A stretch of 45,439 nt of DNA from Minisyncoccota bacterium (lineage in GTDB: Bacteria; Patescibacteriota; Minisyncoccia; Phycocordibacterales; GCA-2401445). Positions 16,923-19,506 of this stretch are shown piece after piece. Where the stretch lies: assembly GCA_040879725.1 (NCBI GenBank), contig JBBDJV010000001.1:1-45439 (forward strand), given 5' to 3'. Under the pieces are notes generated by a model that did not search any database, was not told where the DNA came from, and saw only the letters and a program-made list of their open reading frames with translations. Numbering within the stretch: the stretch's first letter is position 1; each line of letters starts with the position of its first letter. The position numbers were made by a program, and so were the translations under genes.

Positions 16923-17079
16923 CACCAAGTAACCTCTGTATTAGCTTATTTTTCTGCAAAAGTCAGAAAAATCCTAAGTACTCTCGAATCTTACAGATTC
17001 TGTACACCTTTTGGCTCTTTTGCTTCACATGGGTTCGCAAAACAGCTCAAAAGGTCTTGCGAAAGCGCCCCGCGCTTTC

Positions 17080-17569
17080 TCACCCGGCTCGTCCGTTTTG
17101 AGAGTACTCAAAACATGACTCCGCCTTTCAAGTCCCACACGCACACAAAGCAGTTTGTGTGCTCTCCGGCACGGGGAGGGGGCCTGCCTGCCGGCAGGCA
17201 GGTCGGGGAACGGGAGTTCCCCGTGAAGTGAGAATGCGTGTTACGCATTCGCAAGGCCGGAGGCAGACGTGCCGAGGCGGGGTCGCGGAATTTTTCAGCA
17301 GAAAAATATCCGTGACAGGCAGTGAGTGAGTCTTCGAACGAGCGTTGGAAAACCGTGGGTTTCCAAGTTGTGCCGGAGACTATTTCTGGACTTGTCCCGC
17401 AGTTACTAAGCTTTTTGTTTTGCTTTGCTCACAAAAAGCAAAGTACTGCTGGACGCGGCTCGGGTACGACCAGAAGACTGGTCGGCTTCGCACCCTCCGC
17501 CTTTCAAGTCCCACCTCCGCCTACAAAAATATAATCAAAATATGTTCCACATATTTCTCGTTATTTTTG
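17080..17569 (-). repeat. composite tRNA-Leu(CAA)-associated structured modules
   Basis: Inverted tRNA 3' copies at 17502-17524 and hairpin-split 17127-17172; ~44 bp shared with Trp locus; ~150 bp shared with Tyr locus; palindrome 17183-17202. Confidence 0.8.
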
Positions 17570-17651
17570 TGCCGGAGGTGGGACTTGAACCCACACCCCT
17601 TGCGGGACACGATTTTGAGTCGTGCGCGGCTACCAATTACGCCACTCCGGC
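17570..17651 (-). tRNA. tRNA-Leu(CAA)
   Basis: GCCGGAGTGGCGTAATTGGTAGCCGCGCACGACTCAAAATCGTG...GGTTCAAGTCCCACCTCCGGCA. Confidence 0.95.
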
Positions 17652-17893
17652 AGATGTTCTACATGCTTTAAAAACTCTTTCCCAATTCCCGATTTTAGAT
17701 ATTTTTCTCTTTCTCGAGCTTCTTGTCTTGTGTTGTATTTCTCTAGCAAGATTACCTCAAAGGGGCCGTACGGTCTAGTGGTTTTGTTTTTCCCCAAGTT
17801 GTGAGCACTTATTCTCTGTTCAGGATTACCAGTAATTCCTACATATATATAATTTCTTTCTCTACTTTTTAATGCGTATGTATAATAGCTCAT
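17630..17893 (-). CDS. small standalone GIY-YIG endonuclease
   Basis: YTYALKS...YIYVGITGNPEQRISAHN...EAREREKYLKSG; stop codon lies inside tRNA-Leu D-loop. Confidence 0.88.
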   Translation of the reverse strand: MSYYTYALKSRERNYIYVGITGNPEQRISAHNLGKNKTTRPYGPFEVILLEKYNTRQEAREREKYLKSGIGKEFLKHVEHLPEWRNW

Positions 17894-17907
17894 TTTTCTT
17901 CCATGGT

Positions 17908-17993
17908 GCTACCAACCTGCCTGCTGTCTGCCTACCAACCTGCCTGCCGCCTGCCTGCCGGTAGGCAGGGCAGGCAGGTTACGCCACTCCGGC
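17908..17993 (-). repeat. duplicated tRNA-Leu 5' end interrupted by nested 20-bp palindromes
   Basis: GCCGGAGTGGCGTAA (17993-17979) | 63-bp palindrome cluster | TTGGTAGC (17915-17908). Confidence 0.85.
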
Positions 17994-17994
17994 A

Positions 17995-18030
17995 ATGCGC
18001 CTCTTCGGCGCATGCGCCGAAGAGGCGCAT
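17995..18030. repeat. perfect 36-bp palindrome
   Basis: ATGCGCCTCTTCGGCGCATGCGCCGAAGAGGCGCAT equals its reverse complement. Confidence 0.9.
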
Positions 18031-18198
18031 AGACCGAAAAGTACTTTTTTATCAATATTTTTCTTCTCTCAATTTCTCTTTTAAAACTCTTTCCCGTAAA
18101 TATATCTACGTTTGATAAGTCTACTTAAATACACACTAAAAATCAACAATGAAGAGTTTGGAAGTGTGTGTTAGAATACGTAAGTAATTCGAAAAAAA

Positions 18199-19506
18199 AT
18201 GTCACAATTTCAAGAAAATTCTGTATTTTGGATTGAGGTAGACAAAATACACGCTAACCCATATCAACCTCGCTTTACCTTTGATGAAGCAAAGCTCGAA
18301 GAGCTCGCTGATTCCATTCGCCAGTACGGAGTGCTTCAGCCATTGGTAGTTACTCGAAAAGAATCAACTGGTCCAGACGGAGGTATTGTCGTAACTTACG
18401 AGCTTATCGCAGGTGAGAGAAGGTTGCGAGCGTCTAAAATTGCCGGAGTAAAGCAGGTACCTGCACTTATTAGAAGTGGTGAAGATGACGCACAGGTAAA
18501 ACTCGAGCTTGCTATTATCGAAAACTTACAACGAGAAGATCTCAACCCAGTAGATCGCGCGCGAGCGTTTGAACGTCTCGCAAAGGAGTTTAACTTTAAG
18601 CATACTGAAATCGCAAAGAAGGTAGGTAAAAGCCGTGAGTATGTTTCAAACACTCTTCGCTTGCTCTCACTTCCTGATGAAATACTCCAAGCGCTTGCTG
18701 AAAAGAAAATTACTGAGGGTCACACTCGACCGCTCATGATGCTAAACGATAGACCTGATGAACAACGAACATTGTTTAGGGAGATTGTATACAAGAAGGT
18801 GAACGTGCGTGATTCTGAAATGCTCGCGCGTCGTATTGCACAAGATAAGGTGCGTAAAAAGGAATACACTGTCGATCCTGAAATTGCGGAGTATGAAGGC
18901 AAGTTGGCTGAGTCACTCGGTACACGCGTTATGATTGAGCGTGGCGAAGAGGGAGGGCGTATTATGATAAGCTTTTTCAGTAACGATGATTTGGAGGAAT
19001 TGGCACTTATGCTCGCGGCAAAAGAAAAGCGTGGTGCACACTCAATGCTTAAGCGTTTTATGGAGCAAAAGGGTATTCAAAGCGCTCCACTGGAAAAGTC
19101 TGAGGTTACTCCACAAACACCAAGTACGCCACACGTATCACCTGAAGAGTCTCTACCTGAACAACAGCAAGTAGCCAAGGAGGCTCCCGCACCAACTCAA
19201 AATGTCACACAACTAGCACATGTTCCTACGCAAGATAGACAGGAAGATAGTCCGGAAGAAGTGAGGGTGAGTGTTTTTGATGAAAATCACGAAACACCAG
19301 AAGTGCAAAGCTTCTCAAGTAATGAAGTGAGTATGCCTTATGGCACACAAGCAGAAAGTCCTGCAGAGCAAGAGAATACTAGTGGAGGGGTTGAAACTCC
19401 TACACCTGATGCACCGAGTCCTGTAGAGGAGTTTGAACCGCAACGCGAGGAAGTTGTCGAGGAAGACGACTCAGACATGTACTCGATTAAAAACTTTTCT
19501 GTGTAA
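18199..19506 (+). CDS. parB: ParB/Spo0J partition protein with acidic disordered tail
   Basis: NPYQPR, GVLQPLVV, LIAGERRLRA, IENLQREDLNP, HTH KSREYVSNTLRLL. Confidence 0.93.
   Translation: MSQFQENSVFWIEVDKIHANPYQPRFTFDEAKLEELADSIRQYGVLQPLVVTRKESTGPDGGIVVTYELIAGERRLRASKIAGVKQVPALIRSGEDDAQVKLELAIIENLQREDLNPVDRARAFERLAKEFNFKHTEIAKKVGKSREYVSNTLRLLSLPDEILQALAEKKITEGHTRPLMMLNDRPDEQRTLFREIVYKKVNVRDSEMLARRIAQDKVRKKEYTVDPEIAEYEGKLAESLGTRVMIERGEEGGRIMISFFSNDDLEELALMLAAKEKRGAHSMLKRFMEQKGIQSAPLEKSEVTPQTPSTPHVSPEESLPEQQQVAKEAPAPTQNVTQLAHVPTQDRQEDSPEEVRVSVFDENHETPEVQSFSSNEVSMPYGTQAESPAEQENTSGGVETPTPDAPSPVEEFEPQREEVVEEDDSDMYSIKNFSV

Follow-up and report, generated by a model that had tools for sequence, protein, structure and literature searches.

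Genomic islands, prophages, and ICEs integrate at tRNA genes, each of which is made whole again by a duplicated piece; the islands and prophages use a fixed attachment site, usually the 3′ part of the tRNA. In the REP/RAYT and IS200/IS605 HUH systems, a short palindrome spreads and nests without target duplication. Both of the latter are discussed in the main text of a study of the Ssn family (PMC11893778, Chenal et al. 2025), whose small GIY-YIG enzymes each bind a hairpin and cleave single-stranded DNA; in that text the authors raise a mobile origin, and a term search finds the word tRNA absent. SegB of phage T4, as described in the relevant sections of PMC2330249, is a free-standing GIY-YIG homing endonuclease that cuts tRNA gene DNA and homes. 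Its gene lies on the tRNA precursor transcript, with the stop codon region cut by tRNA processing. The enzyme is phage-borne, carries a DNA-binding part at its C terminus, introduces double-strand breaks by the T-loop motif, and spreads together with neighboring genes. Finally, the rRNA genes of CPR bacteria contain insertions that are not introns and that carry GIY-YIG genes, frequently located at the base or the top of a stem-loop (PMC11270868, in the parts consulted).

Here we characterize a 342-bp cassette at tRNA-Leu genes. Our preferred reading, to which we give a probability of roughly 0.55, is that it is a selfish nick-and-copy element whose cleavage step we infer. A search of the main texts of largely open-access literature found no description of the element or its family.

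A nuclease gene bounded by two copies of a tRNA-Leu 5′ end

The window (the whole stretch of DNA analyzed, 45,439 nt) is contig C1 of an 874-kb genome, G000. An intact tRNA-Leu(CAA) lies on its minus strand, called at 17569–17651 by ARAGORN and at 17570–17651 by Rfam. Read along the minus strand, the order is tRNA nt 1–15, 63 nt, tRNA nt 16–23, a 14-nt spacer, an 87-codon ORF, and the intact tRNA; the first and third of these form a spare copy of the tRNA start. The locus also contains a 20-bp palindrome, CCTGCCTRCCGGYAGGCAGG, hereafter PAL. The features are as follows:

17183–17202, no strand: lone PAL within a GC-rich non-coding unit that lies downstream of the tRNA (the genome has 20 PAL matches)
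17569–17651, minus strand: putative target gene, tRNA-Leu(CAA) (ARAGORN; Rfam RF00005, 57.9 bits)
17630–17893, minus strand: single-domain GIY-YIG nuclease gene, 87 aa (Pfam PF01541, E 6e-18)
17908–17915, minus strand: spare copy of tRNA nt 16–23, the 14-nt spacer lying between it and the ATG (sequence)
17909–17954, minus strand: 23-nt unit (PAL end plus tRNA nt 16–22) in two tandem copies, 17909–17931 and 17932–17954, with 2 mismatches
17939–17978, no strand: outer 20-bp PAL, after tRNA nt 15 in the D-loop, in halves 17970–17978 and 17939–17949 (sequence)
17979–17993, minus strand: left part of the duplicated target, a copy of tRNA nt 1–15 (exact direct repeat, spacing 342)
17995–18030, no strand: distinct 36-bp palindrome just upstream of the spare copy (occurs once in the genome)
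18199–19506, plus strand: parB, divergent conserved neighbor outside the cassette (Pfam ParB_N, HTH_ParB; synteny)

The last seven codons of the ORF and its stop are read from tRNA nt 1–22, and the TAG stop is that of the D-loop TGGTAG, exactly as the initial annotation had claimed. A stop codon inside the tRNA was found in only 3 of 50 homologs; we therefore rejected it as a design feature and regard it as incidental. The second copy of the first 23 nt of the tRNA, split by 63 nt, had also been noted and is indeed present 342 bp upstream of the tRNA start; for its exact 15-mer, the chance expectation within 500 nt is about 5e-7, assuming uniform base use. The suggestion of a nuclease-only cassette of about 340 bp is likewise supported: the 342-bp unit holds one ORF and no integrase, none was found elsewhere on the window's contig, and the sole tyrosine recombinase of the genome (PF00589) is on contig C10.

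A second PAL (17950–17969) is nested after base 9 of the outer one, at the predicted loop of the outer PAL hairpin. Because it lies inside the first PAL and the remainder is the 23-nt tandem duplication, the D-loop site (GTAA^TTGG) was hit once, and the repeated palindrome hits proposed there fall away.

A contig of sequencing run X1, possibly from the source sample, is identical to the window across 17567–17968; among the listed contigs aligned to the locus, none joins precisely across a skipped cassette. Promoter scanning of 17300–18250 returned no site on the tRNA strand and one on the other, with 1.3 expected by chance, so that the co-transcription as tRNA leader named in the initial annotation is a conjecture. 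In Rfam, no family besides tRNA reached its gathering score over the locus. The 36-bp palindrome is close to the expected position of a −10 box. An 18-nt copy of the nuclease gene's last codons at 18078–18095 may mark the scar left by an earlier unit, similar to L033, L053, and L066, or be an AT-rich chance match.

A compact GIY-YIG domain

The encoded protein scores 65.4 bits against Pfam PF01541 (GIY-YIG; curated cut-off 22.6). The domain fills residues 3–76 and is the only one present, and most homologs are 77–80 aa long. Tyr6, Tyr17, Arg27, His31, and Glu63 are invariant in an alignment of 40 out of 120 listed homologs, and the structure model has a pLDDT of 90. Together, the profile match, the catalytic residues, and the predicted three-strand fold place the protein in the GIY-YIG superfamily. 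Its nearest solved sequences and folds are UPF0213 proteins and Slx1 (PDB 1zg2, 1ywl, 6seh, and 7cq2). An NCBIfam search returned no significant match, and the ESM Atlas only unnamed GIY-YIG clusters. UPF0213 and Slx1, unlike the cassette, have a housekeeping context, and we know of no link between them and tRNA duplication.

The dN/dS ratio was 0.03–0.09 in nine of ten nuclease pairs, the tenth being saturated, which indicates that the gene is under purifying selection. Among the plasmids and phages searched there was no close relative (best <40% identity), and one viral contig carries a near-full homolog. A 23S rRNA IVP gene was not found in G000.

Recurrence at tRNA-Leu genes

A scan of species genomes confirmed at least 575 homologous stretches, of which we analyzed the best 80. 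An intact, same-strand tRNA-Leu adjoins the nuclease gene in 75 of these 80 (anticodons CAA 38, TAA 13, CAG 12, GAG 8, and TAG 4); of the remaining five loci, three are truncated by a contig end within the start of a tRNA-Leu, one is broken off by an N gap, and one retains only fragments. PAL, with up to three edits, occurs within about 800 nt of 77 of the 80 genes, compared with 12 of 143 distal windows of like size. Homologs were thus found, within this best-80 set, to keep the consistent company of tRNA and palindrome that the initial annotation had proposed to check. The loci come from records titled Patescibacteria, Bacteroidota, Ignavibacteriota, and Nitrospirota, and the phyla are interleaved on the nuclease protein tree, which has few columns and weak support. 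Tandem cassette units occur at L039 and L040.

Since the first ranking favored matches to the tRNA-derived tail, the search was repeated with a tail-free, 78-position profile. In the window's order, covered by 301 genomes, the eight best-scoring of 30 loci lie at tRNA-Leu, and seven genomes score >100 bits; three of the four genomes of the window's family carry the gene at tRNA-Leu(CAA). In the phylum of genome G301, 32 of 401 genomes match at 1e-25, in a search limited to 14 scored candidates per genome, which may have missed some genes. Of the top 26 loci there, 25 have a called tRNA-Leu, and a contig end truncates the remaining one. The best-80 set and the two profile sets may overlap and are counted apart.

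Two layouts and a palindrome in tRNA loops

The layout of the window (5′ piece, PAL, short remainder, gene, whole tRNA) is shared by 45 of the 80 loci, and 12 show its mirror image (whole tRNA, gene, 3′ part split by PAL). Our script assigned neither to the other 23, where palindromes are nested or decayed, units are in tandem, flanks are short, or copies mismatch. The 5′-end duplication first described for the window therefore recurs widely but is not universal, as the 12 mirror loci duplicate the 3′ part.

The length of the duplication is variable, and its ends vary on both sides. In 40 of 44 loci, the spare 5′ piece matches the tRNA of its own locus without a difference, compared with 1.6% for the tRNAs of other loci, a contrast that is partly circular because loci were classed by the match to their own tRNA. 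This match extends at least 5 nt into the upstream flank in 9 of the 44 loci, some of the long flank matches being the ends of a previous nuclease copy. The spare piece differs from the adjacent tRNA at about six loci (L043, L075, L079, L089, L090, and L118). A tendency of the spare copy to stop at the foot of the arm bearing PAL was also considered and rejected as not significant (p 0.06 and 0.11).

In clear cases, insertion of the 20-nt PAL neither lost nor duplicated target bases. PAL touches a hairpin loop of the cloverleaf at 54 of 57 sites, compared with 41% expected from positions, these sites not being independent, as the position of PAL is clustered on the protein tree (18 changes versus 29.6 when shuffled, on a weakly resolved tree); position also changes often. 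Rather than the single site originally envisaged, PAL is found at some ten positions, which lie within the D, anticodon, and T loops or at their edges.

Such loops are present in RNA too, and the nuclease gene is always co-oriented with the tRNA. Both observations would suit an enzyme that cuts or processes tRNA-Leu or its precursor, as a toxin, an addiction system, or a defense, with the spare copy as a decoy or regulatory leader; so would the promoter-like sequence seen by eye before the spare copy in L004. We judge an RNA target quite improbable: to our knowledge, the GIY-YIG enzymes characterized so far cut DNA. There is no conserved partner gene, and insertion of DNA at loops requires a DNA break or reverse transcription, for which the cassette has no gene. 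Moreover, according to the main text of PMC11893778, SsnA does not bind RNA.

Precise empty alleles and inheritance

Empty tRNA-Leu loci, which the initial annotation had suggested looking for in relatives, were found. In G301's genus, 25 of 30 fetched tRNA-Leu(TAA) loci are empty and five are filled, and the starts of tRNA-Gly and tRNA-Leu lie 109–131 nt apart in the former versus 470–503 nt in the latter. The alleles are precise: up to the insertion site, the sequences of the empty loci L158, L164, and L169 are closely similar to that of filled L149, and the host flank is single in these three and doubled in L149. In G303's genus, one of 30 loci is filled, and three of the others have <100 nt of flank. 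With parB as the reference neighbor in the window's order, we measured its distance from tRNA-Leu(CAA): 383–548 nt in three filled loci versus 62–255 nt in 16 without the cassette. In one set of 30 loci, three carry the nuclease gene.

A gene of long residence whose repeats are incidental would agree with the three of four carriers in the window's family, yet we give it hardly any credence in view of the seven of 301 genomes of the order above 100 bits, the precise empty alleles, the five anticodons, the two layouts, and the interleaved phyla. Neither of the outcomes that the initial annotation had named against its own proposal was seen: the tRNA and palindrome association is present, and the gene is patchy rather than conserved in all relatives.

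Within the window's genus, the cassette looks inherited, with the same site and layout in G000 and G001. Between these genomes, ParB is 95% identical and the nuclease about 65–68%. Independent acquisition in the two was considered and set aside, synonymous sites being saturated in both the nuclease gene and parB.

Three loci bear apparent signs of cassette loss in their sequence. At the empty tRNA-Leu locus L152, a PAL-like hairpin stands alone at the 5′ boundary of the tRNA, and the "empty" L015 and L020 keep, as judged by eye, the last nuclease codons just before tRNA-Leu.

The palindrome outside the cassette

Exact PAL is present in 49 of the 401 genomes of G301's phylum; a cross-count of two tables places it in 13 of 32 genomes with a close nuclease homolog versus 36 of 369 without. 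Around 20 picked PAL sites from 17 genomes, 16 of them without a close homolog, neither a GIY-YIG gene nor a tRNA was found within about 700 nt, and several of these sites sit in other hairpin or tandem repeats. In G000, 16 of the 20 PAL matches lie within 700 nt of a tRNA, a zone that makes up 4% of the genome. By these counts, PAL is not exclusive to the nuclease cassette. Since it stands alone in many genomes, it would be a mobile micro-element in its own right.

Lone PALs, including those in other repeats, are what one would expect if the nuclease cassette and PAL were separate parasites. The gene would insert with a long target duplication, and another enzyme, for instance a RAYT-like HUH transposase, would move PAL, which would later land in the spare copy, a dispensable hairpin. 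Second PALs in the same spare copy (L036 and L045), nested PALs, and the other hairpins borne by sister clades at other tRNAs can be read in the same way. G000 has four Y1 transposase matches, on contigs other than the window's, and three of these genes are flanked by their own ~20-bp palindromes, some nested (C13:9216, C8:107673, and C15:100584); however, none of the four has a PAL-like sequence within 900 nt. Also difficult to reconcile with separate parasites are the presence of PAL, almost fixed in sequence, near 77 of the best 80 cassettes in several phyla; the position of PAL, partly inherited with the protein; and the 3–4 Mb genomes of G301 and G303, in each of which the sole exact PAL is at the cassette. 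We consider this, the foremost alternative, unlikely and retain the nick-and-copy element as our working interpretation.

Some smaller features of PAL deserve mention. The Y1 genes with their palindromes resemble RAYT/REP-like pairs in a tiny genome. Further PAL-in-PAL nestings in G000, at C10:38462, C13:18802, C13:19633, and C15:4598, use the same loop position as in the window. At C17:14039–14075 of G000, a partial 5′ copy of tRNA-Val(GAC) lies 87 nt ahead of that tRNA and encloses a PAL variant; it has no nuclease gene and, from its sequence, is possibly a scar. At L236, L251, and L253, lone PALs lie inside hairpins that by eye resemble Ssn-type repeats.

Comparison with known systems

The closest likeness is to Ssn (SsnA, cd10448), which shares with the cassette a single GIY-YIG domain of <100 aa, a short hairpin repeat as partner, and matching catalytic positions (Tyr6, Tyr17, and Glu63 here; Y6, Y17, and E64 for SsnA in the main text of PMC11893778). 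The nuclease is 39% identical over 65 aa to an SRM-flanked protein. In contrast to Ssn, where oriented NTS/SRM repeats flank the gene, the cassette has a perfect 20-bp palindrome inside a duplicated tRNA piece; the SRM motif was found at none of the 80 loci and not in 17000–18200 of the window, with four occurrences in the positive control L203.

The size, the catalytic residues, the hairpin partner, the purifying selection, and the inheritance within a genus would all agree with a domesticated Ssn-like enzyme that recognizes PAL in single-stranded DNA and restricts incoming DNA in transformation, the tRNA being only a safe transcribed harbor. This account seems improbable to us given the scattered occurrence (in 32 of 401 genomes and in 5 of 30), the decayed and tandem copies, the 1–23 exact PAL copies per genome versus hundreds for NTS, and the lack of SRM at the 80 genes; it also leaves the constant tRNA-Leu target unexplained.

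As with SegB, the GIY-YIG gene sits among tRNA genes, at its putative targets and with empty alleles in relatives, but the cassette differs in its bare domain, which at residues 3–76 leaves no separate C-terminal DNA-binding domain, its chromosomal and tRNA-Leu-specific location, its target duplication, and its palindrome. Unlike tRNA islands, it has no integrase, measures 0.3–0.4 kb, and makes a duplication of variable length, mostly of the 5′ end. From REP/RAYT and IS200/IS605 it differs by a GIY-YIG gene instead of Y1 and by a unit that is one 20-bp palindrome in hairpin loops. The CPR insertions are in rRNA, and the parts of PMC11270868 consulted contain zero occurrences of tRNA or palindrome; they match two distant loci, L124 and L132, rather than the tRNA-Leu clade. 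By the features tested, the cassette is not a member of the Ssn, SegB-type, or integrative families, and the element, a small nuclease plus a hairpin repeat, is widespread and, within the literature covered, apparently undescribed.

A proposed nick-and-copy mechanism

We propose that the nuclease would nick folded single-stranded tRNA-Leu DNA at hairpin loops, acting as a structure- and sequence-guided nickase by analogy with Slx1 or SsnA. Repair of the break from a filled allele would insert PAL, a short arm, the gene, and a restoring arm, so that the tRNA would be restored by duplication and not by splicing. A repeat cut in the restored copy could yield tandem arrays, and recombination between the duplicated ends could remove the cassette precisely. 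PAL would be a semi-independent 20-bp passenger captured at nicks, kept in the spare copy because it breaks that copy up. In the filled allele, homology ends exactly on either side of the PAL position; by analogy, this geometry is that of a homing element at its putative cut site, with duplication replacing splicing.

The weakest step of this proposal is the first making of the duplication on a jump to a distant host. In the donor allele, the spare copy is split by PAL, the intact tRNA is still present, and tandem units exist; the donor keeps an intact tRNA and therefore would have no obvious immunity, which counts against the selfish reading. In addition, clean insertion without target duplication fits a strand-transfer (HUH) enzyme better than a hydrolase, and G000 has four Y1 matches. 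The lone PALs, the apparent inheritance within the window's genus, and the lack of a close relative among the plasmids and phages searched also weigh against the selfish reading.

A bolder claim, tentative and to us somewhat doubtful, is that this may be the smallest autonomous site-specific bacterial mobile element yet. A nuclease of ~80 residues and a 20-bp PAL would read the single-stranded tRNA cloverleaf, nick its loops, and repair the host gene by a self-made duplication, with no integrase, transposase, or splicing. The same enzyme would paste the bare 20-mer into other hairpins, and sister clades would act likewise at tRNA-Thr, Cys, Asn, Gln, Pro, Ser, and Arg with hairpins of their own.

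If the proposal is true, it would provide a route of site-specific spread needing neither recombinase nor intron, account for a 20-bp palindrome scattered in Bacteroidota and CPR genomes, and add very small nucleases with tRNA-gene specificity beside the Ssn family, with the sister clades as a natural panel of tRNA-specific nickases. Stand-alone GIY-YIG genes without assigned function have been annotated in the thousands. The present clade is directly testable because the likely target, the candidate cut sites, and the partner sequence can be read from genomes.

Related genes and other tRNA-linked repeats

We inspected by eye 22 lower-scoring loci of the window's order. Twelve are at other tRNAs (Thr, Cys, Asn, Gln, Pro, and Ser; one is cut by a contig end), with a 5′ piece and PAL or another hairpin. 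Two, L124 and L132, are distant GIY-YIG genes in 16S rRNA genes with inverted ends, and about eight have inverted ends beside a start codon. In L125–L128, L134, L136, and L138, again by eye, short inverted ends are placed just before a start codon. Three loci among the matches in G301's phylum are at tRNA-Arg.

G000 contains a second, distant GIY-YIG gene (36% identical) at C18:16900–17300, downstream of tRNA-Ser(GGA) and with different hairpin repeats. At C8:90668–91000, its tRNA-Thr(TGT) has two upstream tandem copies of the leader plus the first 20 nt, at 117-nt spacing and without a nuclease gene.

Downstream of tRNA-Leu(CAA), at 17000–17568 of the window, two GC-rich non-coding units are stacked, each bearing an inverted copy of the tRNA 3′ end; G001 has the second unit only. 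About 22 of the 30 tRNAs of G000 have their own 3′ end copied downstream, inverted or direct, and most lone PALs of this genome lie in such GC-rich units, which from their sequence are possibly a separate tRNA-3′-end mini-element.
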